From assembly GCA_002422725.1 (NCBI GenBank), contig DITE01000007.1, positions 10,957 through 74,956 of the forward strand: a stretch of 64,000 nucleotides of DNA, given 5' to 3'. The notes below the pieces were generated by a model. The model did no database searches and had not been told where the DNA came from. It worked only from the letters and a program-made list of their open reading frames with translations. Both the position numbers and the translations under genes were made by a program. Below, in pieces: positions 3,756 to 50,475 of this stretch. The DNA comes from Bacteroidales bacterium UBA6192 (GTDB taxonomy: Bacteria > Bacteroidota > Bacteroidia > Bacteroidales > F082). Numbering within the stretch: the stretch's first letter is position 1; the number at the start of each line of letters is the position of its first letter.

Positions 3756-3844
3756 CGTTTCAGATTGTTTTCATGAGAAAAATTGAAAATTGTTTCGTTT
3801 TATCTATCTTCAATATTGATATTAACGTCTAAAATTAAGAAATT

Positions 3845-6793
3845 TTAATTTCCTAACAACTTCACCGAAAACATCCATTGTTCCAGAGGGAGAACACTCT
3901 CTTCAAATTTACGCGCATAGCCTGCTGACCAGGTAGTTTTCAGGTATGAAAACAATACCAGTTCCAGGTCGACCTGCATACCGGCATTGAAAACATTTCG
4001 CCGGCTGATCTCATCATCCGGATTAAGCAAGGCATGGGTTCCAAACAAGGATGTTTTTATGTAAGTTGGATACAGCCAGGTAGTCCCGACATTGCGCAAG
4101 CGAATGGGTTTTAAGTTGAGTTCGCCCATGGTTTTGACAAAATTATAGGCTGACAGCGCATCGATGCCAACCCCCGGAAAAGCAAGGATCTTACGGTATT
4201 GATCCGCATGTTGCCAGTCGATATAGTTGTTTCTGAATCCCCCAAAATAGAATGAGGAAAATGAAGACCCTTTTTTGCCAAAGGATTGTCCTACACTGTT
4301 TCTTATCCAAAAACTCGTATTCCTGACAACAGGAACCAAAAATCCAATATGCTGCTCCGAAACCAACGAAGGATAAAGATTTCCATTAGCCAGATAGCTA
4401 TACGCAATCAGGTTCCACAAATATCCTTTTTCATCATCAACACCCCCCAGCGTACGCCTTAATTTTGTGACACCTATATCGGCCGACAAACTCTGAAAAT
4501 TCCTTATCGCTGTGGAAACATTTTGAAACTGAGGCAACACTTCCAGATCACCATAATGGGTTAAACTGAAACCGTAGTTTGTCTTTAACGGAGATTTGAG
4601 TGTAGATGATTTCTTGTAGCCTATGCCTACCGAATAGCCGGCTCTGCTTCGTTTGGTTGGCCCAAAAAGGTCGTAAAAATCGGTCTTGTTATAATTTGCC
4701 TGAAGATTCCATAACCAATAGTCCCATTGCAATTGTCCGTGAAATTTCTGCTTATCGGGAGAGGTACTCCAAGGTGAAGTCCCCAGGAATAAACTCAGAT
4801 TCGATATACCAACCCTGTCGCGCCAATTGAGCCGATAGCCGATCGCAATCGTTTCCTTGTATCCGGTAATATCGGGATAGGCTCCGGTGAGTGACATGTT
4901 TTTAATGGGCACATAGGCGGTTTCTTCGGTTTTTAGTGAATCAATATTCACTTTTGAGGCCGGAGGAAGCGAATAGTCGCCAATATGCGGACTTTTATCA
5001 TAAGCCAGGTTACCCAGGTAATTTATGGAATTGGCTTCGGTGATAACCTTCATGGGAATCACCCCGGGCCACATGCCATTTCGATAAAATTTGAGCACAA
5101 ACAAGGAGTCTTCACCAATTTGCTGTGGCATAAAAAGTCCGCTTTCGTCGTTAGAGAGCAATTCAAACGACTTATCTTCAAAGGAAAAACGCCAGATATT
5201 GGAAACCCCGGTATAGTATGAAATCCCCATCAGGAATCGGTCGTCTTGCGAAAAACGGAATTGTGTCAAGGTGTTGTCTTCTAACTTTATAAGCGTTTCA
5301 AATTCCTTGACGCCTATTTCCAGATCGGCCAGTTTAAAAAGAATAAGCGATTGTTCGCCACGTATACCTGTGAGGGAGGCTGTTAACTTAGTACCATCAT
5401 TGGAAATGGAAAGGTCGAGCATCGATCTGCCAAAATCGGTGGTATACATTGGAATGATTTCGGTGTAAGGTTCCGGAATCTTGACCAGCGTAGCATATCC
5501 ATTGTCATGTTTCACTCCCCAAATACTCCGGTCAACCGGGTTGAAGGTAAGATTGCCGGTGCGCGAAAGCGGAATGAGGGTTTCTTTCTTCCCGGATGAA
5601 ACATCAATTTTCACCAAACTCCGATATTTTCCATTCTGTTCGGTGATGAAAATTTGTTGATTGTGAGGATCATATGCAAGGTAAGTAACCGAATACAGCA
5701 TAGGGGAATCAAGTACGGCTATTTTTTTGAGTTTGCCCGTGCGGAGGTTCAGTTCAGCAATATGTGAAATCTGCCCCGGATGATTGATCGCGGCATACAT
5801 TTTCATCTCCTTTTTATCGAATCCGACGGTTGAAAAACTGCCAAGAGGTTCTGTAGTGAGTGGCCGGAACGATGTCAAAGGAAAATCCTTTACCTTATTG
5901 AGGTTTTGTTGTTGAAAATCTGTTTCAAAATTGATCCATTCGTCCCATGCATGCTGCACATTCTTGCCGAATACTTTCCGAAACTGGGCGGCATAAAAGG
6001 CTTTACTCCCATCGGTGCGATCATAAAGTTCCTTAATCTTCTCGTCTCCATAAGCCTGAGCCAGATAGGTTACAAAGCGTGTTCCATACAGGTAGGCATT
6101 TGCACCCACCTGAAAATCAACTGTCGATCCTTCTGTTTCCAACCCGACCACTGAATACAGCGGATAACCTTCGTTTATTATACTGCGGAAGTACATTTCG
6201 TCGTATGGACCCAATGCTCTTCCCAGTCCTCCCGACGTCCAGGTTTCGAGGTAGCAGGCAATGCCTTCGTGATACCAGCGCGGGGCATACCATCGCGGTG
6301 TGGTAAGATAGCTCCAGAAAGCGGTCGTAGGTACTTTTTCGTCCCGGGCAACTTTACCGAACAAGACTTTACGCCAAAACATATCTGATTTGTTGGGCTT
6401 GTCGGCCAGGGTAATATGGGTAAGCTCGTGGGCAAACAGCCATTGAAAACGTTCACTTGACGGAGTAATGCTAAAGGCAAAATTGAAGGGTGAAACGCCA
6501 AGAATAATCATGTTGTAAGGCATTACAATGGCTCCGCCATGACCATCGTCTTCAAAATCGGTGAGCATCACATACGTCATCTTGTGCGGATAATTCCAAT
6601 GTGCCTTATGGAAATCAAGGGCATTATGGAAGGTACGCGCCACATGAGGCATGAGATAGCTATATCGTTTCCCGAAATAGATCAGTTCCATCTCATCCGT
6701 TTTGAAACGGTTAATTTTTTGGCTAAAAAGAAAGCCTGATGTCCCTATATAAAGAAACACCAGGAATACAAAACGGGTGAAAATGTATGTCAT
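3845..6793 (-). CDS. Large envelope protein: N-terminal HExxH metallopeptidase-like domain, central beta-propeller-like region, C-terminal beta-rich (possible outer-membrane barrel) region
   Basis: 982 aa with an N-terminal signal/anchor. 'LFAHELTHITL' is a HExxH motif and 'WYHEGIACYLE' lies downstream. The middle region has TolB/WD40-like strand repeats. The C-terminal ~350 aa is rich in alternating aromatic/Gly strands and ends '...MFSVKLLGN'. Confidence 0.45.
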   Translation of the reverse strand: MTYIFTRFVFLVFLYIGTSGFLFSQKINRFKTDEMELIYFGKRYSYLMPHVARTFHNALDFHKAHWNYPHKMTYVMLTDFEDDGHGGAIVMPYNMIILGVSPFNFAFSITPSSERFQWLFAHELTHITLADKPNKSDMFWRKVLFGKVARDEKVPTTAFWSYLTTPRWYAPRWYHEGIACYLETWTSGGLGRALGPYDEMYFRSIINEGYPLYSVVGLETEGSTVDFQVGANAYLYGTRFVTYLAQAYGDEKIKELYDRTDGSKAFYAAQFRKVFGKNVQHAWDEWINFETDFQQQNLNKVKDFPLTSFRPLTTEPLGSFSTVGFDKKEMKMYAAINHPGQISHIAELNLRTGKLKKIAVLDSPMLYSVTYLAYDPHNQQIFITEQNGKYRSLVKIDVSSGKKETLIPLSRTGNLTFNPVDRSIWGVKHDNGYATLVKIPEPYTEIIPMYTTDFGRSMLDLSISNDGTKLTASLTGIRGEQSLILFKLADLEIGVKEFETLIKLEDNTLTQFRFSQDDRFLMGISYYTGVSNIWRFSFEDKSFELLSNDESGLFMPQQIGEDSLFVLKFYRNGMWPGVIPMKVITEANSINYLGNLAYDKSPHIGDYSLPPASKVNIDSLKTEETAYVPIKNMSLTGAYPDITGYKETIAIGYRLNWRDRVGISNLSLFLGTSPWSTSPDKQKFHGQLQWDYWLWNLQANYNKTDFYDLFGPTKRSRAGYSVGIGYKKSSTLKSPLKTNYGFSLTHYGDLEVLPQFQNVSTAIRNFQSLSADIGVTKLRRTLGGVDDEKGYLWNLIAYSYLANGNLYPSLVSEQHIGFLVPVVRNTSFWIRNSVGQSFGKKGSSFSSFYFGGFRNNYIDWQHADQYRKILAFPGVGIDALSAYNFVKTMGELNLKPIRLRNVGTTWLYPTYIKTSLFGTHALLNPDDEISRRNVFNAGMQVDLELVLFSYLKTTWSAGYARKFEESVLPLEQWMFSVKLLGN

Positions 6794-33046: not shown

Positions 33047-36000
33047 TTAATTGTGACAATACTGATTGATGACCTCAAGCACTTTCTTCAATGAAAGTGG
33101 CTTAATGAGATAATCATTACAGCCGGCTTGAAGTATCCTTTTGATTTCATCCTGCTGGGCATAGGCAGTTTGTGCAATAACGGTTAATTCATGGTCGAAC
33201 TCCCTGATTTTCTTCACTGTTTCAATCCCATCCATCAATGGCATTTTGATGTCCATGAGCACAATATGATATGAATGATTTCGGATCATATCAAGGGCTT
33301 CGATTCCGTTGGTTGTCTGATCAATTTGTTTCACATAGGGTTCGAGCATGGAAACCAAAAGATCTGCATTGTCTTTTTCATCTTCAACAAGAAGTACCCT
33401 GATGTTTCTAATGGCCGAATGCTCTTTGATATCCATATCTTTCCTATCTGACAAAGGTGTACTACCTGGTAGGTCGATCGGCAGGTCAAAATAGAAAGTG
33501 CTTCCTTTATCCTCGGCGGAAAGCAGTCCAATTTTTCCTCCCATCAGGTCAATAAGACCTTTGGCAATACTTAACCCTAGTCCATTACCCCTTATGGCAT
33601 TCAACTGGGCTTTCGCGCTCCTGAAAAACCTGTTGAAAACATAAGGTTGCTCATAGGCTGGAATACCCATTCCTGTATCAGAAACATAAAAATGGAGCCA
33701 ATCGCTCCGGTCGGGCATAACAAGGCGGCTGCAACCGATACCAATTTCGCCACTTTGGGTATATTTAATTGCGTTGCCGACAAATCCGGCCAATACCTGT
33801 CTGATTTTTGCCCTGTCAGCTGTAATCAACTTTGGAACACCCGCTTCAACAACGGCTTTTTTCAGCACTAATCCAACTTTTTCGGCTTCCGGTCTAAAGG
33901 TCATGACCACATCTTCGAGCAATTGTTGAATATCGATCAGGTTCTTTTCAAGAGGTATTTTTTCCGAATCGAGACGCGAAACCACCAGCACATCATCAAT
34001 GATTCTGAGAAGCTGATCGGCATTGCTGTTGATAGTTTCAACAAATTGTTTCTTCTGTTGCCCGGTGTAGTCCTCAAACAACAAGTCAGAGAAGCCTACA
34101 ATGGCATTGAGTGGAGTGCGGATTTCATGCGAAAGATTGTTGAGAAACGAAGTTTTAAGTTTGTCACTTTCCTCAGCCCGTTCCTTGGCATCAAGCAGTT
34201 CTTTTTCCATGACTTTGCGACTGGTAATATCGATCAAAAGCCCGATCAATCCGCCTATCTGATCGTTGCTATCGGGAAAAGGCGATTTTGTGATGATGGT
34301 GTTTCGGGTATTGCCGTCGGGCAGGTTGATCACCCTTTCGATTACTTGCTGCTTATCGATGCCCTGAAGTATCCGGCGATCAGCCTCGTAATTACGTTTA
34401 GCTGTTTCGGGGGCTTCAAAATCGAAGATCGTCTTCCCCACAATATCATCTGCCATCTTTCCGTAAAACTCTCGGAACGCTCTGTTGATACCGAGATAAG
34501 TTCCGTTAACATCCATATAAAATAAAGGGTTAGGAATCGAATCAAGAAGTGTTTCGATGAACCTGTTTTTCTGAACAAGTTCAATCTCCGATTCCTTCCT
34601 TTCGGTAATGTCCCTTACCATGAGCAGCACTTCGTCGAGTCCGCTCTGTACCATTCGGGCATCAAACCACTTTAGTTTGCCATCAACTTCAATATCATAT
34701 TCAAATTGAACGAGTTGTCCTGTTTCGAATGCCTCTTTAATTTTTTGATGTGTCAGTTGCGCCAAGGATAAGGGTAAAATTTCTTCAACAGCTTTTCCCA
34801 AAAACTGGTCTGCTGGCATAAGCAGTTGTTCTGGTGATTTCGCAACACAGTCAATAAACTGGTAGTGTCGGTTAAATCTGAACAGGATATCGGGAATGGC
34901 AGAAATGATGGCTTTGTTGCGCTCTTCGGTAATGGCCAGTGATTCTTCGGTTTTCCTCTGTTCTGTAATGTCTTGCGAAATAGAAAGGACACCGGGTTTA
35001 CCGTTCTCCAGCTTGATTCTGGTTTCGATCAGATTGATGACAATGGGGGTTCCATTTTTTTGAAACCCCGTTAGAATAGTTTCCAAAGCACCATGTTCAA
35101 TAATTTTATGTATGTTATTTTTGACCAGAGAGCGGGATTCAGACGAACTGAAGATTTCAACGGATTGACCAATCAATTCATGTGTTTCATAACCATATTG
35201 TTTACACAGGGTTTTGTTGACTTCGAGTATGATTCCATTTTCGTCTTCCAGCAAAATGCCAACCGGTGATGAGTCGAAAAGAAGGCGATAGCGGGCTTCA
35301 CTTTCTTTAAGTGCGTCGTCGGCCTTGCGGCGTTCGGTGATATCCTGCGCTATGGCTATTACTGCATCCTGACCGAAGTAATTGGTTTTAAAAAGGTTGA
35401 CTTCCTTTGGAAATTCCTCACCATTTTTTCTGATTCCCCAGAATTCAAATCGTTGTGTGTACCCTTTAAATGCTTCTTCAATATGATGTTTTATTTTTGA
35501 AAGATCGTTCTTTCCCGGGGCTGAAAGGAAATCCGGAGTTTTTCCGACAAAATAATCTCTTGAATAACCATACATGGTTACAGCACCTTCATTCACTTCA
35601 AGGAATAAGCCATTAGCATCTTGAATATAAATGGCATTGGTAATACTATTGAATAACCCCTGAAAACTATCAAGACTTCTCGATAGTTCTACTCTTGATT
35701 GATACTCCAGTCGTTGATCCCTGAAAACCAAAACAACACCATTGATTTTGCCATCTTCGTCAACAATGGGAGCGCCTGAATCGGAAATGGGAATGCGGTC
35801 TCCTCTTTTTGTTATCAGTAAAGTGTGGTTTGCCAATGCAACAATCTGACCCTTTTCGAGCACCAGTTTCACCGGATTGTCTGCTTTCAAACCGGTGTTT
35901 TCATTCACAATATTGAAAATCTCGCTCAAAGGCTTATTTCGGGCTTCAGCTTCTTCAAAGCCCGTAAGATTCTCAGCCATGTGGTTCATTTGCATTACAT

Positions 36001-36667
36001 TTCCATAACTGTCCGTCGTTATTACTGCATCGCCAATACTGTAAAAGGTTGTCCGGAACAATTTCTCATTTTTTGTTGTCTGCCTGAGAAAAGCCTGATT
36101 GAGTTCCTGATCCTGCAAAATTTTGCCAATTAAGACCGTCACAATTGGATAGACCCCAATAATAGTTAATCCTAAAACACTGAATGTTTCAGACCTGTAA
36201 CCTGATGGGAGGGTAAAAATTAGGAAAAGCATAGCCGCATGAACCACGAAACCCAAAAGATAAAGCTGCAGAACATGAAGTTTACGAGCTGATTTATGGT
36301 GTTTCCATGTATAATAAAATGCTGTTCCGATTAGATAGGAAGCCCCGATGACCGATATGCCCATAACAGCCCCCGCACCACCTATCCAAAACCGGTAAAC
36401 AGCTGCCATAAACGCCGCAATCAAACCGGTAACCGGACCAAAAAACAATGCCGAAAGGCTGATGACCATCGAACGTCCATCAAAGATGATGCCCTCAGCA
36501 AAATGCATGGGATAAAGCATACCAACGATCGTGGCAAATCCAAACAACAAGCCCTGTGCGGTTTTCCCAAACCATTGGTCGCGTTTCCAGCGGTTGTCGA
36601 TAAAACCAGATAACACACTGATGGCAACCAGAACTGCTAAGTTATATACCAGATCGATCCGAATCAT
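33047..36667 (-). CDS. Hybrid sensor histidine kinase/response regulator with 5TMR-LYT-like membrane domain and five PAS domains
   Basis: N-terminal multi-TM region, then five PAS-like modules (for example 'FYSIGDAVITTDSYGNV', 'ITNAIYIQDANGLF', 'SSPVGILLEDENGII', 'AIPDILFRFNRHYQ', 'SIPNPLFYMDVNGTY'). These are followed by HisKA 'LSHEIRTPLNAI', HATPase 'GNGLGLSIAKGL' and REC 'VLLVEDEKDN...MDIKMPLMDG'. I prefer the ATG at 36667. Confidence 0.85.
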   Translation of the reverse strand: MIRIDLVYNLAVLVAISVLSGFIDNRWKRDQWFGKTAQGLLFGFATIVGMLYPMHFAEGIIFDGRSMVISLSALFFGPVTGLIAAFMAAVYRFWIGGAGAVMGISVIGASYLIGTAFYYTWKHHKSARKLHVLQLYLLGFVVHAAMLFLIFTLPSGYRSETFSVLGLTIIGVYPIVTVLIGKILQDQELNQAFLRQTTKNEKLFRTTFYSIGDAVITTDSYGNVMQMNHMAENLTGFEEAEARNKPLSEIFNIVNENTGLKADNPVKLVLEKGQIVALANHTLLITKRGDRIPISDSGAPIVDEDGKINGVVLVFRDQRLEYQSRVELSRSLDSFQGLFNSITNAIYIQDANGLFLEVNEGAVTMYGYSRDYFVGKTPDFLSAPGKNDLSKIKHHIEEAFKGYTQRFEFWGIRKNGEEFPKEVNLFKTNYFGQDAVIAIAQDITERRKADDALKESEARYRLLFDSSPVGILLEDENGIILEVNKTLCKQYGYETHELIGQSVEIFSSSESRSLVKNNIHKIIEHGALETILTGFQKNGTPIVINLIETRIKLENGKPGVLSISQDITEQRKTEESLAITEERNKAIISAIPDILFRFNRHYQFIDCVAKSPEQLLMPADQFLGKAVEEILPLSLAQLTHQKIKEAFETGQLVQFEYDIEVDGKLKWFDARMVQSGLDEVLLMVRDITERKESEIELVQKNRFIETLLDSIPNPLFYMDVNGTYLGINRAFREFYGKMADDIVGKTIFDFEAPETAKRNYEADRRILQGIDKQQVIERVINLPDGNTRNTIITKSPFPDSNDQIGGLIGLLIDITSRKVMEKELLDAKERAEESDKLKTSFLNNLSHEIRTPLNAIVGFSDLLFEDYTGQQKKQFVETINSNADQLLRIIDDVLVVSRLDSEKIPLEKNLIDIQQLLEDVVMTFRPEAEKVGLVLKKAVVEAGVPKLITADRAKIRQVLAGFVGNAIKYTQSGEIGIGCSRLVMPDRSDWLHFYVSDTGMGIPAYEQPYVFNRFFRSAKAQLNAIRGNGLGLSIAKGLIDLMGGKIGLLSAEDKGSTFYFDLPIDLPGSTPLSDRKDMDIKEHSAIRNIRVLLVEDEKDNADLLVSMLEPYVKQIDQTTNGIEALDMIRNHSYHIVLMDIKMPLMDGIETVKKIREFDHELTVIAQTAYAQQDEIKRILQAGCNDYLIKPLSLKKVLEVINQYCHN

Positions 36668-36765
36668 GCACAAATATAGTGACACGAAATGAATAATAAA
36701 CCGTTTGAAGAGAAAAAGATGCCTGAAAGATTCATCTCCGGGCTTCCGGATTAAGGATACCTGGG

Positions 36766-40748: not shown

Positions 40749-40756
40749 TATTTTTG
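40749..40756 (+). promoter_or_regulatory. Candidate -7 promoter box TATTTTTG upstream of the ligase-carrier-AOS operon
   Basis: It matches TAnnTTTG and lies ~70 nt upstream of the ATG at 40826, in the 183-bp divergent region shared with mnmA. Confidence 0.3.
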
Positions 40757-40825: not shown

Positions 40826-42529
40826 ATGTCGAACATTGGATCGTATGAAGAAAGGGTAAAAAATTTCGAATGGAGCATTGCCGAAAAAGAACTCGGTTAT
40901 GAACCGGGAGGAGACATCAACATTGGCTGGTATTGCACCGACCGAATCTGCCAGATGGGCAAAGCCAGTAAAATGGCTATTTTATGGGAAGGACTTGGTG
41001 GCGTTGAAAAGAAATACACTTACAACGACCTTCGGCTCAGGACCAATACCATGGCCAGTTTTCTGATTGGATTGGGTGTTAACCAGGGAGACAGGGTTTG
41101 TCTGTTCATGGACAAGGTTCCGGAATTGTACATTGGTGTGCTTTCGGTACTCAAAATGGGTGCCGTAGCTCAACCGTTGTTCTCTGCTTTTGGCGACGAA
41201 TCACTATTCATCCGACTCGAAAATGCCGGAACCAGCGCCATCATCACCCAACGTAAACATGTTGGCAAGGTGCGACAAATTCTAGATAAACTTCCCGGAC
41301 TTAAAAACATCATCATCATCGATCACGATGGAAAAAAAGAGCTGAAGGAAAGGGAAACTGTTTTTGCTATGGATTCGGCTGTTCAGGTTGAACATTTCGA
41401 CGTGGCAAAAACCAAAGCTGAATCCCCCTCTGTACTTCATTACACTTCGGGAACAACTGGCCAGCCCAAAGGCGTGAAACATGTGCATTATTCCCTCATT
41501 TCGCAATACCTGACTACAAAGTGGGTTCTCGACATGCAGGAGGATGATATTTACTGGTGCACCGCCGATCCGGGCTGGGTCACAGGCACCTCCTACGGCA
41601 TCATTGGCGGTTTTGCTACCGGTGCAACCAACTGCATACTCGACACAGGCTTCTCGGCCGAGAGCTGGTATCGTTTTATCCAAAAATATAAGGTGACGAT
41701 GTGGTATTCGGCTCCAACAGCTATCCGATCGCTGATGAAAGCCGGCGATGAACTGGTGAAACAATTCGACTTATCGTCGCTGCGTCACCTTGCCAGTGTG
41801 GGCGAACCCCTGAATGCTGAGGCTGTTATCTGGAGTGAAAAAGTATTCGGAAAAGCTTTTCACGACACTTATTGGCAAACAGAAACCGGCTCGATGATGA
41901 TTGTCAATGTACCAGGATTGAAAATAAAACCCGGATCAATGGGCAAACCATTTCCCGGAATCACGGCTACTGTGCTCGACGAAAACACCTACGAACCCGT
42001 TTCGGGTCCCAACAAGCCCGGTTTGATCGCTTTCAGGCCCGGCTGGCCTGCCATGATGCGCACCTATTGGAACAATGAAGAAACCTATCAGAAGAAATTT
42101 AAAAACGGCTGGTATCTCTCCGGTGATAAAGCCTTTCTTGATCAGGACAATTACTTCTGGTTTATCGGTCGCGACGACGATGTGATCAACACCGGTGGTC
42201 ACCTGGTGAGCCCATTTGAAGTTGAATCGGCTTTGTTGGAACACGAAGCTGTTGCCGAGTCGGCTGTGGTGGCCAAGCCCGATGAAGTAAATATGGAAGT
42301 TGTCAAAGCATTCGTTGTGCTCAACGAAGGATTTGAGCCAGGCGATATGCTCGAACTTCAAATAATGAACTTCATCCGTAAAAAACTCAGCCCACTTGCC
42401 ATGCCACAGGAAATTGAATACCTCGATAAGCTTCCCAAAACCCGCAGCGGAAAAATCATGCGTCGGCTGCTACACGCCAAGGAATGGGGCCATGATATCG
42501 GGGATGTTTCTACCCTTGAAGATGATTGA
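40826..42529 (+). CDS. Adenylate-forming ligase, Bacillus AcsA-like (acetyl/short-chain acyl-CoA synthetase type)
   Basis: 567 aa. 'LHYTSGTTGQPKGV', 'YWCTADPGWVTG', 'YWQTETG', 'GWYLSGD' and 'KLPKTRSGKIMRR'. Its overall collinearity with short AcsA-type synthetases is judged from memory. Confidence 0.8.
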   Translation: MSNIGSYEERVKNFEWSIAEKELGYEPGGDINIGWYCTDRICQMGKASKMAILWEGLGGVEKKYTYNDLRLRTNTMASFLIGLGVNQGDRVCLFMDKVPELYIGVLSVLKMGAVAQPLFSAFGDESLFIRLENAGTSAIITQRKHVGKVRQILDKLPGLKNIIIIDHDGKKELKERETVFAMDSAVQVEHFDVAKTKAESPSVLHYTSGTTGQPKGVKHVHYSLISQYLTTKWVLDMQEDDIYWCTADPGWVTGTSYGIIGGFATGATNCILDTGFSAESWYRFIQKYKVTMWYSAPTAIRSLMKAGDELVKQFDLSSLRHLASVGEPLNAEAVIWSEKVFGKAFHDTYWQTETGSMMIVNVPGLKIKPGSMGKPFPGITATVLDENTYEPVSGPNKPGLIAFRPGWPAMMRTYWNNEETYQKKFKNGWYLSGDKAFLDQDNYFWFIGRDDDVINTGGHLVSPFEVESALLEHEAVAESAVVAKPDEVNMEVVKAFVVLNEGFEPGDMLELQIMNFIRKKLSPLAMPQEIEYLDKLPKTRSGKIMRRLLHAKEWGHDIGDVSTLEDD

Positions 42530-42608
42530 TTGGCATTGCCCGCAAAGATCGATTTTAAACCACTTAAAATGAATAATCATATTAATAAACCCTAAAATTC
42601 AAATAAAC

Positions 42609-42863
42609 ATGAACAACATGAAAGACATCGTTCTAAAGTATGTAATTGACGAATATCTCGACGACCCGGATGAAGAACTAACCTACGACAGCCCGCTGAT
42701 TTCGGGTGGCATCGTTGATTCATTCTCTATGGTATCGCTGAAACGTTTCCTCGAAGCTACCTATAAAATTTCGCTTCCCGATGACAGGGCAACACCCGAG
42801 GCTTTCGATACCGTGAACAGCATTGTTACCCTGGTTGAAGAATTTATAAGTAAAAAATCATAA
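42609..42863 (+). CDS. Small acyl/peptidyl carrier protein
   Basis: 84 aa and acidic. 'GGIVDSFSMVSL' fits the phosphopantetheine attachment motif G-x-x-DS. It lies 13 nt upstream of the alpha-oxoamine synthase gene. Confidence 0.7.
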   Translation: MNNMKDIVLKYVIDEYLDDPDEELTYDSPLISGGIVDSFSMVSLKRFLEATYKISLPDDRATPEAFDTVNSIVTLVEEFISKKS

Positions 42864-42876
42864 ATACAGGGGAAAA

Positions 42877-44124
42877 ATGGGATATAGTGATAAAGTTAGG
42901 GGCGTATATCAGGAAACCCTAAAGAAAATTGAAGATGCCGGCCTGTTCAAGACCGAAAGGACAATTTTTTCGTCGCAGGCTGCCGAAATTGAGGTTGAAT
43001 TTCCTGTTGGTGCCCCGCGAAAAAGGGTTATCAATATGTGCGCCAACAATTACCTTGGCTTGTCGAGCCATCCCGATGTGGTTCAGGCTGCACACAAAGG
43101 ACTCGATACCCATGGTTACGGCATGTCGTCCGTAAGATTTATCTGCGGCACACAGGACATCCACAAGGAACTCGAAAAGAAAATCACCGAGTTTCTCGGA
43201 ACCGAGGACACCATTCTTTTCCCTTCATGCATGGATGCCAATGCCGGCGTGTTTGAGGCCATACTCACCGAAGAAGACGTGATGATCAGCGACAGGCTGG
43301 TGCATGCTTCCATCATCGATGGTATAAGGCTCTCGCCCGCCATGCGCGACACCTTCAAGCACCAGAACATGGAACACCTGGAGCAGAAATTGCAGGAGTT
43401 TGAAAACAAAAGGATCAAGGTTGTCATCACCGACGGCGTTTTCTCGATGGACGGTGATACGGCCAGATTGGACGAAATGGTTGCACTTTGCGAAAAATAC
43501 GACGCCTTGCTGTTTGTCGATGATTCTCACTCAAGTGGATTTATTGGCAAAACAGGCCGCGGAACCCATGAAAAATATGGTGTGATGGGCAAAATCGATA
43601 TCATCACCACTACCTTTGGCAAAGCCCTGGGCGGTGCTTCCGGCGGATGTGTGTCGGGCCGCAGGGAGATAGTTGAGATGTGCCGTCAAAAAGCCCGTCC
43701 TTACCTGTTTTCCAACACCATTGCCCCGGTAGTTGTTTCGGGAGTGCTCAACGTGCTCGAAACCTTGTCGAAAAGCACCGAAAGGCGCGACAAGCTCGAA
43801 ACAAACAGCGATTACTGGCGCAAAGGATTGCTCGATGCAGGCTTTGTACTCCAGCCCGGCGACACACCTATCATCCCGGTGATGCTGTTCAATGCCAAGC
43901 TGGCGCAAAACTTCTCGCGCGACCTTTATGAAGAAGGTATCTATGCTATCGGATTTTTCTTCCCGGTGGTGCCAAACGGTGCTGCCCGCATCCGTACCCA
44001 GATATCAGCTGCACACGAAATACACCATCTCGATAAAGCCCTTGCCGCTTTTATTAAGGTGGGTAAAAAATACAATATTCTTGGCAAGACCAAAAAGGAA
44101 ATTGTTGAGATGTACGGCCTTTAA
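42877..44124 (+). CDS. PLP-dependent alpha-oxoamine synthase (Kbl/BioF/Spt family), operon copy
   Basis: 415 aa. 'CANNYLGLS', 'GMSSVRFICGT', 'HASIIDG', 'DGVFSMDGD', 'DDSHSSG' and 'TTFGKALGG' (PLP lysine). It has short N- and C-terminal extensions relative to the second copy. Confidence 0.85.
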   Translation: MGYSDKVRGVYQETLKKIEDAGLFKTERTIFSSQAAEIEVEFPVGAPRKRVINMCANNYLGLSSHPDVVQAAHKGLDTHGYGMSSVRFICGTQDIHKELEKKITEFLGTEDTILFPSCMDANAGVFEAILTEEDVMISDRLVHASIIDGIRLSPAMRDTFKHQNMEHLEQKLQEFENKRIKVVITDGVFSMDGDTARLDEMVALCEKYDALLFVDDSHSSGFIGKTGRGTHEKYGVMGKIDIITTTFGKALGGASGGCVSGRREIVEMCRQKARPYLFSNTIAPVVVSGVLNVLETLSKSTERRDKLETNSDYWRKGLLDAGFVLQPGDTPIIPVMLFNAKLAQNFSRDLYEEGIYAIGFFFPVVPNGAARIRTQISAAHEIHHLDKALAAFIKVGKKYNILGKTKKEIVEMYGL

Positions 44125-44151
44125 TGGCTGAAGCAATTTAACAGCAGATTA

Positions 44152-44189
44152 CAGCCGGCACTTCAACAAAATTGCCGGCTGTTATTTTT
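44152..44189 (+). terminator. Rho-independent terminator after the ligase-carrier-AOS operon
   Basis: Stem CAGCCGGCA (44152-44160) pairs with TGCCGGCTG (44173-44181) across a 12-nt loop, followed by TTATTTTT. Confidence 0.7.
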
Positions 44190-44430: not shown

Positions 44431-45444
44431 ATGACCAACAATTGCTTAATGAATAAATCGGCATTTCTAATCTTCATGCTGTTGCTGGCTTTGACAGCCT
44501 GCAATCCAAACCAGCCAACCAACCTGGCACAAGTGCTGCGGGCCGACACCGCTATCAATGCCCTGGTGCCACAAAAAGCTGTTCTTGAGATTCTCGACAC
44601 CAATTTTGTGTTTGTCGAAGGTCCGGTTTGGAAGTCCGATGGATCTCTGTTGTTTTCAGATATCCCGGCCGACAGAATTATTCGCTGGCATCCTGTTGAA
44701 GCTTTCAGCGATTATCTGAATCCGTCGCAGCAAACCAACGGACTTGCCTACGACAAGGATAACAACCTCATCATGTGTTCGCATGGTGCCAGAGCAGTAA
44801 TTCGACAACAGGCCGATGGAACCCTCACCTATCTGGCCCATAAGTATCAGGGCAAACGCCTCAATAGCCCCAACGACCTGGTGATTGCCTCCAGTGGTGC
44901 CCTGTATTTTACCGACCCTTCATGGGGATTGAAGGATCTGGAACAATCGGCAGACAAAGAGCTGTCGTTCAATGGGGTATATGTGCTCCTGAACGACAGT
45001 TTAATATTGATCGACAGCACACTGTGGCGTCCAAATGGCATCACCCTGTCGCCCGATCAGCGCACTTTGTATGTTTCGGATATGTTTGTGAACAATGTCG
45101 GAAATATAAAAACCCTCTATCAATACACTTTGGATGAAAACGGAATGCCCATCTCCAAAAAACTGAATACCGTTACTGGTGCATCCGACGAAATTTTGCG
45201 TCAGGAAGGTGGTTTTGATGGGATTAAGACAGATATACACGGCAATTTGTATTGCACCGGACCCCATGGTATTGTGGTGCTGAATGCCTCCGGAAATTAC
45301 CTTGGTACAATACGCACGCCCCTAAGCCCTGCGAATTGTGGCTGGGGCGACGAAGATTTTAAAACACTTTACATCACTGCACGCCGACATGTTTACCGTA
45401 TCAGACTTAATGTACAGGGGTTTATGCCACTTCGGGAAATATAA
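44431..45444 (+). CDS. SMP-30/gluconolactonase/LRE-family lipoprotein
   Basis: Lipobox 'LLLALTAC', 'VEGPVWKSDGSLLFSDIPADRIIRW', 'PNDLVIASSGALYFTDP', 'RPNGITLSPDQRTLYVSD' and 'FKTLYITA'. Confidence 0.8.
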   Translation: MTNNCLMNKSAFLIFMLLLALTACNPNQPTNLAQVLRADTAINALVPQKAVLEILDTNFVFVEGPVWKSDGSLLFSDIPADRIIRWHPVEAFSDYLNPSQQTNGLAYDKDNNLIMCSHGARAVIRQQADGTLTYLAHKYQGKRLNSPNDLVIASSGALYFTDPSWGLKDLEQSADKELSFNGVYVLLNDSLILIDSTLWRPNGITLSPDQRTLYVSDMFVNNVGNIKTLYQYTLDENGMPISKKLNTVTGASDEILRQEGGFDGIKTDIHGNLYCTGPHGIVVLNASGNYLGTIRTPLSPANCGWGDEDFKTLYITARRHVYRIRLNVQGFMPLREI

Positions 45445-45550: not shown

Positions 45551-46741
45551 ATGTACGACAGGATGAAAGAAAGTTTAAAGGCTGATCTTCTGCAGATTAA
45601 AGAAGCCGGCCTGTACAAAGAAGAACGCACACTCGTGTCGCCACAGTCGGCTGAGATAACGCTCGACAGTGGAAAGAAAGTACTGAATTTTTGTGCCAAC
45701 AATTACCTTGGTCTTTCGGATCATCCCAGATTGATCAGGGCAGCGAAAAAAGCCCTTGACACGCACGGATATGGAATGTCGTCGGTTAGGTTTATATGCG
45801 GCACTACTGATCTTCATAAGATTCTGGAAAAGAAAATTGCTGATTTTTTTGGCACAGAGGATACCATCCTATATGCTGCAGCATTTGATGCCAATGGTGG
45901 CGTTTTCGAACCCTTGCTGGGGCCAAAAGATGCCATCATATCCGATACGCTCAACCATGCTTCCATCATCGATGGGGTGAGGTTGTGTAAAGCTGAGCTT
46001 TACCGTTTTGCCAACGCCAATATGACACAGTTGGAAGAGCGGCTGATTCTGGCACAGGAGCACAACTTCCGGATTATTGTGACTGATGGTGTTTTTTCAA
46101 TGGATGGCAATGTCGCTCCTTTGAATGAAATTGTGCGTCTGGCCAATAAATATGATGCTATGGTAATGGTAGATGAATGCCATTCAGCTGGTGTTGTCGG
46201 AGAAACAGGTCGCGGTGTAACCGAGTTGTTTAATCTGCGGGGCCAGGTTGAAATAATTACCGGAACACTTGGCAAAGCTTTTGGCGGAGCTATCGGTGGC
46301 TTCACAACCGGAAAAAAAGAAATTATCGAATACCTGCGACAAAGGTCAAGGCCTTATTTGTTTTCTAATTCTTTACCTCCTGCAGTAGTCAATGCCGGAA
46401 TCGAGATGTTCGATATGATGAACGAGACACACGAACTCCAGGACAGGCTGCACGAAAACACAAGCTATTTCGTAGAAGAGATGAAGACAGCTGGCTTCGA
46501 TCTTAAACCAACAAAATCAGCTATTTGCGCGGTAATGTTGTACGATGCACCACTGGCCAAAAAATTCGCCGACACCCTGCTCGATGAAGGCATTTATGTG
46601 ATCGGCTTCTCGTTTCCAGTGGTGCCCCGTGGCGAAGCCCGCATCAGGGTGCAACTTTCGGCCGCCCACACCAGAGAACATCTGGATAAGGCCATTAAGG
46701 CATTCATCAAAGTGGGTAAACTTCTTGATGTGCTCAAATAA
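45551..46741 (+). CDS. kbl: Glycine C-acetyltransferase-like alpha-oxoamine synthase (2-amino-3-ketobutyrate CoA ligase-like)
   Basis: 396 aa and collinear with E. coli Kbl as I remember it. 'GLYKEER', 'NFCANNYLGLS', 'GMSSVRFICGT', 'LNHASIIDGVRLCKA', 'DECHSAG', 'GTLGKAFGG', 'RPYLFSNS' and 'ARIRVQLSAAHT'. Confidence 0.75.
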   Translation: MYDRMKESLKADLLQIKEAGLYKEERTLVSPQSAEITLDSGKKVLNFCANNYLGLSDHPRLIRAAKKALDTHGYGMSSVRFICGTTDLHKILEKKIADFFGTEDTILYAAAFDANGGVFEPLLGPKDAIISDTLNHASIIDGVRLCKAELYRFANANMTQLEERLILAQEHNFRIIVTDGVFSMDGNVAPLNEIVRLANKYDAMVMVDECHSAGVVGETGRGVTELFNLRGQVEIITGTLGKAFGGAIGGFTTGKKEIIEYLRQRSRPYLFSNSLPPAVVNAGIEMFDMMNETHELQDRLHENTSYFVEEMKTAGFDLKPTKSAICAVMLYDAPLAKKFADTLLDEGIYVIGFSFPVVPRGEARIRVQLSAAHTREHLDKAIKAFIKVGKLLDVLK

Positions 46742-46913
46742 TATACTTTAGACAAGGTTTAACTGATCAGCACGGCAGTGGATTAAAAGATGATTTTGTA
46801 TCATCTTGATGCAAGGCAGTTATTTGATCTGAATGCCGGATCTGTTAAAAGTTCCGGCTGATTTCACTTTTTCTATCTGAAAATCCTTTATTTTGCATCA
46901 AATTAAGCAGACT

Positions 46914-47288
46914 ATGATCATAGGAATTGGCACCGACATCATCGAAGTCATCCGCATGGAGAAACATCTGAAGAACAGCAATGGGCTCAAGGAAAAGCTA
47001 TTTACCGAAACAGAACAAGCCTATGCTGAGCCTAAAGCCTCACGATACCAGCATTATGCGGCTCGTTTTGCTGCCAAAGAAGCATTCTTTAAGGCCCTGG
47101 GAACCGGATATCGTTTTGGAATGGCTTTTCTTGAAATTGAAATCGTTAATGATGAGCTTGGCAAACCAGTGATTACTGCACACGGAAAAGTGAAAGAATA
47201 CCTCGAAAAGCTTGGAGTAAAACACATCCATTTATCCATTTCCCATGTGAAGGAAATGGCCAATGCCTTTGTAATACTGGAAAAATAG
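46914..47288 (+). CDS. acpS: Holo-[acyl-carrier-protein] synthase
   Basis: 'MIIGIGTDIIEV', 'FAAKEAFFKALG' and 'HLSISH'. I prefer the ATG at 46914 over the track start at 46893. Confidence 0.85.
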   Translation: MIIGIGTDIIEVIRMEKHLKNSNGLKEKLFTETEQAYAEPKASRYQHYAARFAAKEAFFKALGTGYRFGMAFLEIEIVNDELGKPVITAHGKVKEYLEKLGVKHIHLSISHVKEMANAFVILEK

Positions 47289-47301
47289 GATACAACAATT
47301 T

Positions 47302-47616
47302 CTACAGAATCTGCCCCCAGTATCCCTTACCCTTTTCGACCCGGATATCTCCCAAAACTTTTATCTGACACGACAAGCGCAGTCCTCTTACATGATTGTG
47401 AGGTGGCAGGCTAAGCCGTAGCCTCTCCTTTGAATGCATCGGGCTGACATCACCGGTAATTTTCATTGCACAAGTGCCACAACTACCCAATCCCCTGCAA
47501 TTAATAAAATTGGAATTACCATTATGAGGGCTAATTCCATGTTTGATTAAAACTTCGCGGAGCTGGCTGCCTATCGGGCAATGTATTTTTTTATTTTCGA
47601 ACTCAATTACAGGCAT
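47302..47616 (-). CDS. 2Fe-2S ferredoxin-like protein
   Basis: 104 aa. 'CRGLGSCGTCAMKI' (C-x5-C-x2-C) plus a distal 'LSCQ' cysteine. Confidence 0.65.
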   Translation of the reverse strand: MPVIEFENKKIHCPIGSQLREVLIKHGISPHNGNSNFINCRGLGSCGTCAMKITGDVSPMHSKERLRLSLPPHNHVRGLRLSCQIKVLGDIRVEKGKGYWGQIL

Positions 47617-47857: not shown

Positions 47858-48586
47858 ATGGAAACTAAACCCACTTATCCCGACCGCAGAATAGTAGCTG
47901 GATTGCTGCTTATCGTTGCCGGAGGTCTTTTATTGCTCGACCGGATGGACATGATTCCTTTCAACCTGAGCCATTATATCATTTCATGGAAAACACTCTT
48001 AATCGGAATTGGCCTGATTATTCTGGCAAGCCGCGAAAACAGAACCACAGGCTGGATCTTTGTCGGTCTTGGTGTCATATTCTGGTTACCCGAACTGTTT
48101 CAGTATCAAATTCGTCTGAGCACCATTTTTTGGCCGGCTTTGCTCATTGGCATCGGCTTAATCATTATCAGCCGTCGTTCCGACAAAACGGTTTCAGGCA
48201 ACCATGCTCACGTTTTCAGCAGTAAGAAAACAATTGATGACAATGCAGATGAATATATTGATGAAACGGCCATTTTTGGAGGAGGAAACTCTAGGGTTAT
48301 TTCATCCAATCTGAGAGGAGGCAAGATCACCGCAATTTTTGGAGGAACAGACATTGATATGAAGCATGCTGTTCCTGCCGCTGATGGCTGTTCCATCGAC
48401 ATTCTGGTAATTTTCGGTGGAACCAACCTCATCGTCCCTGAGGATTGGCAGGTGAAGTCAGAAATAGTGTCAATCTTTGGTGGTTTCTCCGACAAACGCA
48501 TTGTGCCTGCATCGGTAAACACATCGAAACTGGTCATCATAAAAGGCGTTGCCATCTTTGGTGGCGTCGAACTGAAAAGTTATTAA
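47858..48586 (+). CDS. LiaF-like (DUF2154-type) membrane protein
   Basis: Four N-terminal TM helices, then five '(A/V/S)IFGG' repeat units (AIFGGGNS, AIFGGTDI, VIFGGTNL, SIFGGFSD, AIFGGVEL), as in the LiaF C-terminal domain. Confidence 0.65.
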   Translation: METKPTYPDRRIVAGLLLIVAGGLLLLDRMDMIPFNLSHYIISWKTLLIGIGLIILASRENRTTGWIFVGLGVIFWLPELFQYQIRLSTIFWPALLIGIGLIIISRRSDKTVSGNHAHVFSSKKTIDDNADEYIDETAIFGGGNSRVISSNLRGGKITAIFGGTDIDMKHAVPAADGCSIDILVIFGGTNLIVPEDWQVKSEIVSIFGGFSDKRIVPASVNTSKLVIIKGVAIFGGVELKSY

Positions 48587-48594
48587 ACTGTAAC

Positions 48595-48632
48595 TTCCGG
48601 GCCTGGTTTATCGTCATAAACCAGGCCCGGAA
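48595..48632 (+). other. Perfect 17-bp stem-loop between the liaF-like gene and the kinase gene
   Basis: TTCCGGGCCTGGTTTAT (48595-48611), loop CGTC, ATAAACCAGGCCCGGAA (48616-48632). No U-tract follows. Confidence 0.6.
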
Positions 48633-48665
48633 ACGAACTGTTCTCAACCAACACAAGCAACATCT

Positions 48666-49730
48666 ATGATTAATCCATTTGCAAGAAATCGTTCCTATGT
48701 GTTTTTGTATGTGGCTGTCTGGATATTGATAATCCTTGTCCAGACGGCAACCCTTAATTATTATCAGGATATCGATCTGCTGGCTGCCTTTAGCGATTCC
48801 GTTGTATTCAATACCATCCTGGCCATAATCGGATTCAATATGTGGTATGTGCTCCGATTTAGTGTGAGGGAAAAACTGAGTACGCTCGATCTGATTATCA
48901 ACCACCTGCTTACTGCAGCATTTATGATTGCCATCTGGATTGCTTCAGGATATTTCATTGTTTCGGCCATTGAAAGCGAACAAGCCGAATACCTTGAATT
49001 CCTGAATTCGTCATTACCCTGGAGAGCCATCATTGGTGTGTTTTTCTATCTGCTATTTATCCTTCTTTATTATATAAGCCTTTACTACGAAGATCTTCAG
49101 CAAAAACTTAAAATTGAAGCGCGACTGAACAATTTGGTTAAGGAAGCCGAACTGAATGCTCTGAAATCGCAGATAAACCCACATTTTTTGTTCAACAGTC
49201 TGAACTCTATCAGCTCACTTACCATGACCGACTCGGAAAAAGCACAGGAAATGGTGATCAAACTTTCTGATTTTCTAAGGTATTCACTGAGTCATAACCG
49301 AAACGAAACCACCACACTACGCAGAGAACTCGAAAATACAGAACGTTATCTCGATATCGAAAAAGTGAGGTTTGGGAAGCGATTAAAGTATATTTCGCAT
49401 GTCTCAGACTTGTGTCTTGAAGCGCCTATCCCAAACATGATACTACAGCCTCTTTTTGAAAACGCCATCAAGCATGGGGTTTACAACAGCATCGATGAAG
49501 TTCAGGTTGAGCTTTCATGCGAAGCAAAAGATGGTTTTATGATTATCAGGCTTCTGAATGATTTTGATCCTGAAGCAACCCGCCCAAAAGGTGAAGGCAT
49601 CGGGTTGCAGAATATCCGCAACAGGCTGCAATTGCTTTATCAGCGAAACGATCTGTTGGAGATAAATATGGGCAAAATTGAATTCGAAGCTGTTTTACGT
49701 ATTCCAATTCATTCAATCAATGAACAATAA
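48666..49730 (+). CDS. LytS-type membrane sensor histidine kinase
   Basis: 354 aa with ~5 TM helices, then 'INPHFLFNSLNSI' and a GHKL C-terminus 'LQPLFENAIKHG...GEGIGLQNIRNRL'. Confidence 0.85.
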   Translation: MINPFARNRSYVFLYVAVWILIILVQTATLNYYQDIDLLAAFSDSVVFNTILAIIGFNMWYVLRFSVREKLSTLDLIINHLLTAAFMIAIWIASGYFIVSAIESEQAEYLEFLNSSLPWRAIIGVFFYLLFILLYYISLYYEDLQQKLKIEARLNNLVKEAELNALKSQINPHFLFNSLNSISSLTMTDSEKAQEMVIKLSDFLRYSLSHNRNETTTLRRELENTERYLDIEKVRFGKRLKYISHVSDLCLEAPIPNMILQPLFENAIKHGVYNSIDEVQVELSCEAKDGFMIIRLLNDFDPEATRPKGEGIGLQNIRNRLQLLYQRNDLLEINMGKIEFEAVLRIPIHSINEQ

Positions 49731-50475
49731 AATAAGAACCTTAATTATTGAAGATGAGGAGCCTGCCCGCCAGTTGCTCCGGTCATTCCTTTCAGGCTTC
49801 GAAGAAATTGACCTTATTGGTGAATGCTCCGATGGTTTCAGCGGACTAAAGACCATCAATGAAACCAAACCTGACTTGATTTTTTTGGATATTCAAATGC
49901 CCAAATTGACTGGATTTGAGTTGCTGGAACTCCTTGATGAACTTCCCGAAGTAATTTTCACAACAGCCTATGACCAGTTTGCGATTCAGGCTTTTGAAAT
50001 GAATGCGGTTGATTACCTGATGAAACCATTTGCCCGCAACAGGCTGCGTCAAGCTGTCGACAAAGTGATTGAGCGGTTCAGCCTTAAATCGAGTGGTAAA
50101 GAAGCATTGCAGATGCTAACAAACCATATCCATGAAAAGCCGCCACTTATTGATCGGGTGGTGGTAAAATCGGGCTCAAAGATTCAGGTGATAGCCGTTG
50201 ATGATATTGAACAACTTGAAGCACAGGACGATTATGTGATGATTTATACTACCTCGGGTCGGTTTATGAAAAAAGAAACAATGGCCTATTATGAACAAGC
50301 TTTGCCTGAGGATCGTTTTTTACGCATTCACCGCAGCCACATTATCAATATCAACCAGATCGGTCAAATTGAACAATACGGCAAAGAAAGCTATCTGATC
50401 ATGCTGAAAAACGGCAATCAGGTAAATGTGAGCAAAAGCAGGATCAAAGACCTGAAGCGTGAACTTGGTTTCTGA
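49720..50475 (+). CDS. LytTR-family DNA-binding response regulator
   Basis: 'IRTLIIEDEEPAR...LIFLDIQMPKLTGFELL...VIFTTAY', then LytTR 'IEQLEAQDDYVMIYT...FLRIHRSHIINI'. The ATG at 49720 overlaps the kinase stop. Confidence 0.85.
   Translation: MNNKIRTLIIEDEEPARQLLRSFLSGFEEIDLIGECSDGFSGLKTINETKPDLIFLDIQMPKLTGFELLELLDELPEVIFTTAYDQFAIQAFEMNAVDYLMKPFARNRLRQAVDKVIERFSLKSSGKEALQMLTNHIHEKPPLIDRVVVKSGSKIQVIAVDDIEQLEAQDDYVMIYTTSGRFMKKETMAYYEQALPEDRFLRIHRSHIININQIGQIEQYGKESYLIMLKNGNQVNVSKSRIKDLKRELGF

Follow-up and report, generated by a model that had tools for sequence, protein, structure and literature searches.

In the classical Tdh-Kbl pathway (E. coli kbl-tdh; EC 2.3.1.29), free coenzyme A (CoA) is the thiol partner and no ligase takes part. 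A different logic has been described in Caulobacter and other Rhodobacteria: there, an "acyl-CoA synthetase" (AasR) acylates only a dedicated carrier protein (AcpR) and not CoA, and the serine palmitoyltransferase (SPT), which forms 3-oxosphinganine from a long-chain fatty acid and serine, prefers acyl-AcpR (PMC9386255). Here we describe a three-gene operon (positions 40826-44189) in a stretch of 64,000 nucleotides from Bacteroidales bacterium UBA6192 (contig DITE01000007.1, forward-strand positions 10,957 to 74,956), hereafter called the window. The operon encodes an AcsA-type ligase, a stand-alone carrier protein and a paralog of Kbl, and judging from sequence comparisons we propose, with moderate confidence, that it carries out the glycine C-acetyltransferase step of the Tdh/Kbl pathway in a form that depends on a carrier protein.

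With the Tdh-Kbl pathway the trio shares a synthase that passes the Kbl models and keeps the catalytic residues and, in other hosts, an adjoining Tdh of either type and often a canonical Kbl. It differs from that pathway in the addition of a carrier, an acetate ligase and the carrier-modifying enzyme AcpS, and in a paralog that makes up a clade of its own, marked by a tail and six substitutions. The AasR-AcpR-SPT system resembles the trio in logic and in gene architecture and is, in our assessment, its best analogy in logic. Yet the trio is not a member of that system, as its ligase has an acetate-type pocket (W414) and its synthase is of the Kbl type and failed the SPT models; the phyla and the neighbouring genes are other ones too.

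Further systems resemble single parts of the trio. AMP-forming acetyl-CoA synthetases, namely B. subtilis AcsA, S. enterica Acs with its regulator Pat, and S. aciditrophicus Acs1, have in common with our ligase the acetate pocket, the catalytic lysine and, in some genomes, Pat; in the case of Acs1, the hosts on both sides are fermentative anaerobes. Unlike in those enzymes, here a carrier gene always follows the ligase gene, R526 is replaced by leucine, the CoA loop starts with K-H, R191 is lost, and the predicted acceptor is a protein-bound phosphopantetheine. The closest solved kin of the carrier belong to the pairs DltA-DltC, PltF-PltL and PigI-PigG, in which the carrier is loaded by a free-standing ANL enzyme; these carriers hold D-alanine or L-proline for cell-wall or pyrrole pathways, whereas ours stands between an acetate-type ligase and a Claisen enzyme dependent on pyridoxal phosphate (PLP). 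SulA, a cysteate transferase, is an alpha-oxoamine synthase that takes its acyl group from an acyl carrier protein (ACP) (PMC9304779); it differs from our synthase in its use of the housekeeping ACP, long chains and cysteate, and in having neither a dedicated acetate ligase nor a link to Tdh.

In saxitoxin biosynthesis, SxtA contains an alpha-oxoamine synthase that uses C2-C3 acyl-ACP, so that a small acyl-carrier and an amino acid are joined by domains acting in cis. SxtA differs from the trio in being multidomain, in loading acetyl from acetyl-CoA by a GNAT domain and condensing it with arginine, and in lacking both an acetate ligase and a link to Tdh. An earlier note on this DNA, made from its letters alone, knew of no described system joining a small acyl-carrier with an amino acid. 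In view of SxtA, to say that none is described would be too strong, but no free-standing system like the trio was found described. Searches of the searchable literature for the trio, for acetyl-ACP with an alpha-oxoamine synthase and for Kbl with ACP returned no relevant description. What we report is thus a set of known kinds (Tdh/Kbl pathway, AcsA, type II carriers, AasR/AcpR/SPT logic) in an undescribed combination.

The operon and its predicted proteins

The operon consists of the following features:

40826-42529, + strand: AcsA-type adenylate-forming ligase, 567 amino acids (open reading frame and profile matches)
42609-42863, + strand: stand-alone carrier protein, 84 amino acids (phmmer matches in PDB, predicted fold, invariant D37-S38)
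42877-44124, + strand: Kbl-paralog alpha-oxoamine synthase of clade A, 415 amino acids, with C-terminal tail ILGKTKKEIVEMYGL (Kbl models)
44151-44189, + strand: intrinsic-terminator-like hairpin and T-run, end of the three-gene unit (sequence and fold energy)

The ligase and carrier genes are separated by 79 nucleotides, and the carrier and synthase genes by 13. The translations contain LHYTSGTTGQPKGV, YWQTETG, KLPKTRSGKIMRR, GGIVDSF, DDSHSSG and TTFGKALGG. At the end of the unit, a G+C-rich stem of 9 base pairs, in which ACAGCCGGC (44151-44159) pairs with GCCGGCTGT (44174-44182), is followed by TATTTTT up to 44189. The hairpin has a fold energy of -20.7 kcal/mol, which corresponds to z = -4.6 relative to shuffled sequences, none of which (0 of 200) reached that stability; a simple terminator scan missed it because its loop is 14 nucleotides long. 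The open reading frames, motifs and hairpin thus all confirm the earlier account of three plus-strand genes with these gaps and a terminator. Upstream, TATTTTTG (40749-40756), about 70 nucleotides 5' of the first ATG of the ligase gene, may represent a putative Bacteroidota-type -7 element.

The ligase scored 755.2 bits against NF003313, the model of acetate--CoA ligases of the short AcsA type (cut-off 729), and matched both PF00501 and PF13193; among solved structures, that of B. subtilis AcsA matches best (9g79, E = 2e-172). It fell below the cut-off of the long Acs model TIGR02188 (514 vs. 725), and failed the propionate, MbcS and every FadD-type model, in agreement with its earlier description as a short Bacillus AcsA type rather than a long-chain FadD enzyme. 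Residues were numbered by E. coli Acs (sequence from NC_000913.3) in an alignment that included 55 orthologs of the ligase. In these, the equivalents of V310, T311, V386 and W414, the four residues that line the acetate pocket of S. enterica Acs in the Gulick structures, vary hardly or not at all; the V386 position is alanine in propionate-preferring enzymes. As Trp414 is retained, the acyl pocket should be closed beyond C2-C3, and the ligase is predicted to activate acetate. The equivalent of the catalytic, acetylatable Lys609 is also conserved in the orthologs.

The same alignment also revealed departures from Acs. The A8-motif arginine (R526 in the Acs of both E. coli and S. enterica), which is an arginine in B. 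subtilis AcsA too, is leucine in 55/55 carrier-linked ligases (Leu460 in the window, 42203-42205). Moreover, R191 is not conserved, and the CoA loop opens with K-H in place of E188-G189, although the loop start also departs from the consensus in short AcsA enzymes generally. R526L and the K-H at the loop start may be markers of the carrier-linked ligase clade.

Judged by hidden Markov models, the carrier is a weak point: its PF00550 score of 19.0 bits lies under the gathering threshold of 20.8, and all ACP models of NCBIfam remain below their cut-offs, the best being ACP_for_OlsHI (54.9 vs. 130). This last lead was dropped, as the score is far under the cut-off and the ornithine-lipid paper gives no functional link. 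A phmmer search of the PDB returned carrier proteins only (Bmp1-CP at 9e-8, PigG and PltL at about 1e-5, and also KstB-PCP and DltC). Likewise, the AlphaFold model (predicted local distance difference test score, pLDDT, of 75) has four helices, at residues 4-16, 29-33, 41-52 and 69-83, and Foldseek matched it only to carrier proteins (PigG, PltL, DltC and aminoacyl carrier proteins) at TM scores of about 0.6. Homologs of 81-84 amino acids form at least 8000 clusters at 90% identity; D37-S38 is invariant among 28 carrier homologs, and Ser38, within GGIVDSFS at the start of helix 2, is the predicted phosphopantetheine site. Loading of the carrier by the ligase is supported by its nearest solved kin, PigG, PltL and DltC, being loaded by the free-standing ANL enzymes PigI, PltF and DltA. 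The clustering with AcpS (see below) is suggestive of a conversion to the holo form; AcpS-type transferases can serve DltC-type carriers (7r49, a Foldseek match). As a separate observation, locus L042 has two carrier genes, at 3616-3855 and 5732-5974, which flank the ligase gene on both sides.

The 415-amino-acid synthase, 100% identical to MDP3463167.1, exceeded the cut-offs of the Kbl equivalog models TIGR01822 (572.3 vs. 493) and NF005394 (573.4 vs. 460). It remained under those of the SPT models (CFB, 320.8 vs. 640; beta, 287.4 vs. 500; alpha, 238.5 vs. 670) and of BioF (359 vs. 426), ALAS (261 vs. 338.6) and the CqsA/LqsA type (194 vs. 428). Solved relatives rank in the same manner: Kbl 7bxp at 8.9e-137, SPT at 1e-70, ALAS at 2e-58, BioF at 1e-54, and the cysteate-C-fatty acyltransferase 28eh, far weaker than Kbl, at 3.7e-53. 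In an alignment with E. coli Kbl (NC_000913.3), the synthase keeps Lys244, His136, Asp210 and His213 together with the glycine-type SVRFICG, the beta-branched residue of which is the counterpart of the glycine-gating Thr83 of ALAS; the motifs TTFGKALGG, VHASIIDG, VDDSH and MSSVRFICGT were seen. The Kbl-like character proposed earlier therefore holds, as only Kbl models were passed, while membership among sphingolipid, capnine, CAI-1, BioF or ALAS enzymes was rejected on the curated cut-offs and the PDB ranking. The comparisons that the earlier note had drawn with Caulobacter ceramide synthesis, capnine or sulfonolipid bases and CAI-1-type signals do not amount to memberships, given the failed SPT and CqsA/LqsA models, the weak match to 28eh and the Trp414 of the ligase.

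A tree of all alpha-oxoamine synthases of the retrieved loci (see below) resolved three clades, A, K and D. Clade A comprises the 415-amino-acid synthase, always encoded right after the carrier gene and ending in ILGKTKQEIIEMYG(M/L). Clade K is the canonical Kbl, of 396-402 amino acids, with no tail and 590-657 bits against TIGR01822, often encoded directly 5' of AcpS. Clade D is a second copy specific to Delongbacteria, directly 3' of clade A, which has the tail and a canonical N-terminal half. Clade A differs from clade K by six invariant substitutions (S109P, F112M, G116A, A128V, N135V and L264C in E. coli Kbl numbering) and by a tail of 15 residues, which it has in common with clade D along with further changes in the C-terminal domain. 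Comparing the synthases with Kbl, BioF, Spt, CapB, CqsA and HemA had been suggested before; here, profile cut-offs and the PDB ranking favour Kbl, and the tree gives the paralog its own clade. The window also encodes a canonical Kbl, which scored 657 bits against TIGR01822 (cut-off 493) and is 52% identical to the paralog; with both encoded together, a merely redundant isozyme is unlikely, and the paralog should differ in substrate.

Two more observations concern the synthases. In Delongbacteria-type loci (L004, L005, L010, L012, L013, L016, L024-L027 and L088), the second tailed synthase that follows the 415-amino-acid one has 417-419 amino acids, with a canonical catalytic half and a clade A-type C-terminal half, and after it come a conserved Ser/Thr kinase of 1254 amino acids, Hsp20 and Lon; no AcpS adjoins the trio there. 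In Ignavibacteria and Zixibacteria, a third, distant alpha-oxoamine synthase of 408-474 amino acids, about 33% identical to Kbl and under every NCBIfam cut-off, recurs 0.5-5 kb downstream of the cluster (L007:10029-11264; L014; L035; L008; L086:14429-15655).

Conservation and gene neighbourhood

Conservation of the trio in other genomes, which had been raised as a question, was addressed by a scan with the carrier over one genome per GTDB species; this gave at least 584 confirmed stretches, and neighbourhoods were counted in 80 retrieved loci. The ligase gene lies immediately 5' of the carrier gene in 64/72 assessable loci, and the 415-amino-acid synthase gene immediately 3' of it in 71/73. 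Approached from the synthase side, all five contigs reached (5/5) have the carrier gene directly upstream. The survey thus finds the trio, in strict synteny, across about ten phyla: hosts of the carrier belong to Bacteroidota, Ignavibacteria (Ignavibacteriales), Zixibacteria, Delongbacteria, Acidobacteriota (Aminicenantes, Holophagales), Cloacimonadota, KSB1, Elusimicrobia, Desulfobacterota-like bacteria and others. In a protein search with the synthase, the first 120 matches are homologs of 81-95% identity, all of exactly 415 amino acids, labelled as Bacteroidales, Cloacimonadota, Delongbacteria and Verrucomicrobia.

Identity between Bacteroidota and Aminicenantes-type loci amounts to 81% for the synthase, 77% for the ligase and 76% for the carrier, as against 68% for the canonical Kbl and about 50% for AcpS, and the G+C content of the loci ranges from 33 to 68%. 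This spread, together with the much stronger divergence of AcpS and the canonical Kbl, points to strong constraint on the trio, and recent horizontal transfer was judged an unlikely cause of the cross-phylum identity of about 80%.

Genes next to the trio indicate its metabolic context. In Cloacimonadota, Ignavibacteria and Zixibacteria, the gene directly 5' of AcpS encodes an SDR-type L-threonine 3-dehydrogenase, which matches solved enzymes of this kind at E = 2e-125 to 1e-98. The KSB1 locus, for its part, encodes in order a dehydrogenase of the Zn-dependent alcohol dehydrogenase type, 40% identical to E. coli Tdh, a canonical Kbl, AcpS, ligase, carrier and tailed synthase; in the KSB1 locus L087, the canonical kbl gene overlaps acpS. 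That two non-homologous threonine dehydrogenases are joined to one cluster points to 2-amino-3-oxobutanoate as the common intermediate. AcpS lies directly 5' of the ligase in 50/67 loci, and a canonical Kbl is present in the locus of 26/80 species genomes, usually directly 5' of AcpS.

An acetate transporter of the AceTr/SatP family (284 bits) is encoded 3' of the synthase in 14/65 loci, and a Pat-type protein lysine acetyltransferase adjoins the cluster in 8/80 species genomes (among them L086:11639-14359, L063:10184-12868 and L047). The latter, of 894-906 amino acids, combines NDP-forming acyl-CoA synthetase domains with a GNAT domain and directly follows the tailed synthase in Zixibacteria; its position suggests that the ligase is regulated via acetylation of its conserved Lys543. 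Tdh, Kbl, SatP and Pat are all part of the metabolism of threonine, glycine, acetate or acetyl-CoA, and no further gene family recurs across phyla in the loci.

In the window, the trio is followed by three more genes:

44431-45444, + strand: lipoprotein of the SMP-30/gluconolactonase/LRE-like type (PF08450, E = 7e-40; lipoprotein-type N-terminus)
45551-46741, + strand: canonical glycine C-acetyltransferase Kbl, 396 amino acids, without the tail (TIGR01822, 657 bits)
46893-47288, + strand: AcpS-type holo-carrier-protein synthase (TIGR00516, PF01648)

A second Kbl-type synthase and an AcpS, remarked upon earlier, are thus present downstream; AcpS stands past the canonical Kbl instead of 5' of the ligase. 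AcpS scored 100.8 against TIGR00516 (cut-off 59.8) and also matches PF01648. Its listed open reading frame begins at the TTG at 46893; since an ATG seven codons later, at 46914 (MIIGIGTD...), corresponds at residue 8 to the start of the AcpS models, the latter is probably the true start. The SMP-30-family gene separates the terminator of the trio from Kbl-AcpS in the window, whereas in the closest relative, L006, Kbl directly follows the 415-amino-acid synthase with no such gene between, which marks a lineage-specific insertion. Tdh, SatP and Pat were not found in the 64-kb window, and the flanks are unrelated to the trio. A hybrid histidine kinase of 1212 amino acids with multiple PAS domains is encoded upstream (33047-36685, - strand). 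Downstream, a 2Fe-2S ferredoxin gene (47302-47616, - strand) is directly followed by genes for a LiaF-like membrane protein, a histidine kinase of the LytS type and a LytTR response regulator (47858-50475, + strand). Neither the multi-PAS kinase nor the latter group has an evident link to the operon. No riboswitch or leader RNA hinting at an effector such as glycine or threonine was found at Rfam gathering thresholds in the window and eight related loci.

The proposed chemistry, its rivals and its direction

In the mechanism that we favour, AcpS would convert the 84-amino-acid carrier to its holo form, and the AcsA-type ligase would form acetyl-AMP from acetate and ATP and then exchange acetyl with the carrier's phosphopantetheine thiol, instead of, or preferentially to, CoA. 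The PLP-dependent Kbl paralog would interconvert acetyl-S-carrier and glycine with 2-amino-3-oxobutanoate and holo-carrier, and threonine dehydrogenase, the cluster neighbour in other phyla, would connect 2-amino-3-oxobutanoate with L-threonine. The canonical Kbl would represent a CoA-dependent branch, SatP a channel for acetate across the membrane, and Pat a means of regulating the ligase. Whereas gene identities, synteny, pocket residues and pathway neighbours are observed, it is from gene order that we infer both that the ligase acylates the carrier and that the paralog uses the acyl-carrier, with the kinship of the carrier and the Caulobacter precedent (PMC9386255) as further support; the acyl group is taken, likewise by inference, to be acetyl. 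Of the options that the earlier note had left, its second one, in which the carrier bears a small acyl group that is joined to an amino acid, fits best, and can now be sharpened to acetate and glycine, with a threonine link via Tdh.

Several points weigh against this proposal. The equivalents of R194 and R584, which in S. enterica Acs touch CoA at its 3'-phosphate, are kept in the ligase and in all or nearly all of its 55 orthologs; given that it also passes an acetate--CoA ligase equivalog, use of CoA is possible. No fusion of ligase with carrier or of carrier with synthase occurs among 150 representatives, from a search with the carrier through 1.84 billion representatives; fusions were found with distant carrier relatives, and these are of the carrier-hydrolase and carrier-GDSL kinds only. 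With acetyl on the carrier, this branch would appear to perform the same net chemistry as the canonical Kbl, which leaves the benefit of a private carrier unexplained. The six clade A substitutions lie near the active site and could point to another acyl group or another reaction, and the predicted structure of the 415-amino-acid synthase was too poor to be used (pLDDT 53, from a shallow alignment). Finally, the window comes from a Bacteroidales metagenome-assembled genome, and all named relatives among 360 listed matches and the 80 loci are metagenome-assembled genomes too, none of them from a cultured host.

Some of these points would also be expected if both enzymes were conventional CoA enzymes, which we regard as unlikely, though as the most probable of the rivals. 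The ligase would then be the acetyl-CoA synthetase of the cell and the 415-amino-acid protein an isozyme of Kbl, while the carrier would serve another, or a regulatory, role and merely share the operon. Besides the equivalog scores of both enzymes, the retained R194, R584 and K609 equivalents and the absence of fusions, this explanation has in its favour that Pat, a regulator of Acs, adjoins the cluster in some genomes. It leaves unaccounted for, however, why a carrier gene as conserved as the enzymes (76% identity across phyla) stands between the two in about 90-97% of genomes and some ten phyla, and why AcpS has been drawn into the same operon. A tailed paralog would moreover be redundant beside the co-encoded canonical Kbl, and it bears clade-specific changes in its active-site half in addition to the tail, while in the ligase the A8 arginine is gone (R526L) and the CoA loop no longer opens with the consensus. 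The Caulobacter precedent, in turn, shows that annotations as acyl-CoA synthetase can mislead (PMC9386255).

Somewhat less probable again is that the same architecture makes a different small product, either because the carrier is charged with another short acid, e.g., propionate, or because the paralog does not simply form 2-amino-3-oxobutanoate; an aminoketone would then result, from which a signal of the pyrazine or pyrazinone type or some other metabolite is made. The six invariant clade A substitutions adjoin PLP-site residues, with F112M and L264C giving smaller and N135V and A128V more hydrophobic side chains, and a dedicated carrier normally segregates a special acyl pool; aminoacetone derived from Tdh/Kbl is a known source of pyrazines (PMC9814548). 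Against a different product speak the acetate-type pocket of the ligase, including V386, and the conserved neighbours, which all point to threonine, glycine, acetate and acetyl-CoA metabolism, with no tailoring enzymes conserved nearby in the loci; the wide, vertical-looking spread and the high conservation resemble primary metabolism. A lipid long-chain base, formed from a carrier-bound fatty acid with serine or cysteate as in Caulobacter or in Bacteroidota, whose sphingolipids and sulfonolipids are made by ACP-dependent synthases (PMC9304779), is very improbable in spite of the identical gene architecture, considering the SPT scores far under all three cut-offs, the match to the cysteate enzyme far behind that to Kbl, the glycine-type beta-branched residue kept in SVRFICG, the ligase pocket closed by Trp414, and the absence of ceramide synthase or reductase genes from the neighbourhoods examined.

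For the carrier-dependent glycine C-acetyltransferase step that we favour, two directions are candidates: (a) acetate and glycine to 2-amino-3-oxobutanoate and on to threonine or aminoacetone, or (b) threonine to glycine and acetyl-carrier, and from there to acetate and ATP. For direction (a) counts that acetate activation is the usual direction of AMP-forming ligases and of all known ligase-carrier pairs. In addition, SatP is annotated as an uptake transporter, and Pat classically switches off acetate activation at high acetyl-CoA, both of which also count for acetate activation. For direction (b) counts the presence of Tdh and a canonical Kbl alongside the trio, which would be superfluous for synthesis and speaks for threonine catabolism with recovery of ATP. 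The hosts, moreover, are fermentative and degrade amino acids, which counts for the same direction. A precedent for a reversed ligase is S. aciditrophicus Acs1, which runs in the ATP-forming direction (PMC4992975), with a directional bias that depends on how its CoA loop begins (PMC13404658); in the carrier-linked ligases this loop departs from the consensus too, although short AcsA enzymes generally share that trait. In a survey of Cloacimonadota, acs (K01895) was present in 15/19 genomes of a clade without ackA/pta and was read as ATP-forming (PMC12590816); this acs may be the carrier-linked ligase described here.

Taken together with direction (b), the module might tentatively be seen as an energy-conserving fermentation of threonine that bypasses CoA, an idea to which we give a low probability. 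Tdh would oxidise threonine, and the tailed paralog would cleave 2-amino-3-oxobutanoate with the carrier thiol to glycine and acetyl-S-carrier. The ligase, running in reverse, would convert acetyl-carrier, AMP and PPi to acetate and ATP, as S. aciditrophicus Acs1 does with acetyl-CoA, and acetate would leave via SatP. As a swinging arm between the two enzymes, the carrier would keep this flux apart from the acetyl-CoA pool.

Implications for the hosts and for annotation

The trio is widespread in uncultured anaerobes that dominate digesters and sediments. Database names of its enzymes are generic everywhere, namely acetyl-CoA synthetase and glycine C-acetyltransferase, and consequently metabolic reconstructions treat both as CoA enzymes. 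Four small soluble proteins would suffice for a direct test of carrier dependence. Should the operon run in reverse, a novel mode of ATP conservation from threonine could come to light, and if threonine is indeed fermented through the carrier, the gene counted as "acs" in Cloacimonadota, Aminicenantes, Zixibacteria, Delongbacteria and anaerobic Bacteroidales would encode no acetyl-CoA enzyme at all. Should carrier dependence prove true, it would add a third thiol logic for the Tdh/Kbl pathway, and the AasR/AcpR/SPT principle would reach beyond lipids into central C2 metabolism.

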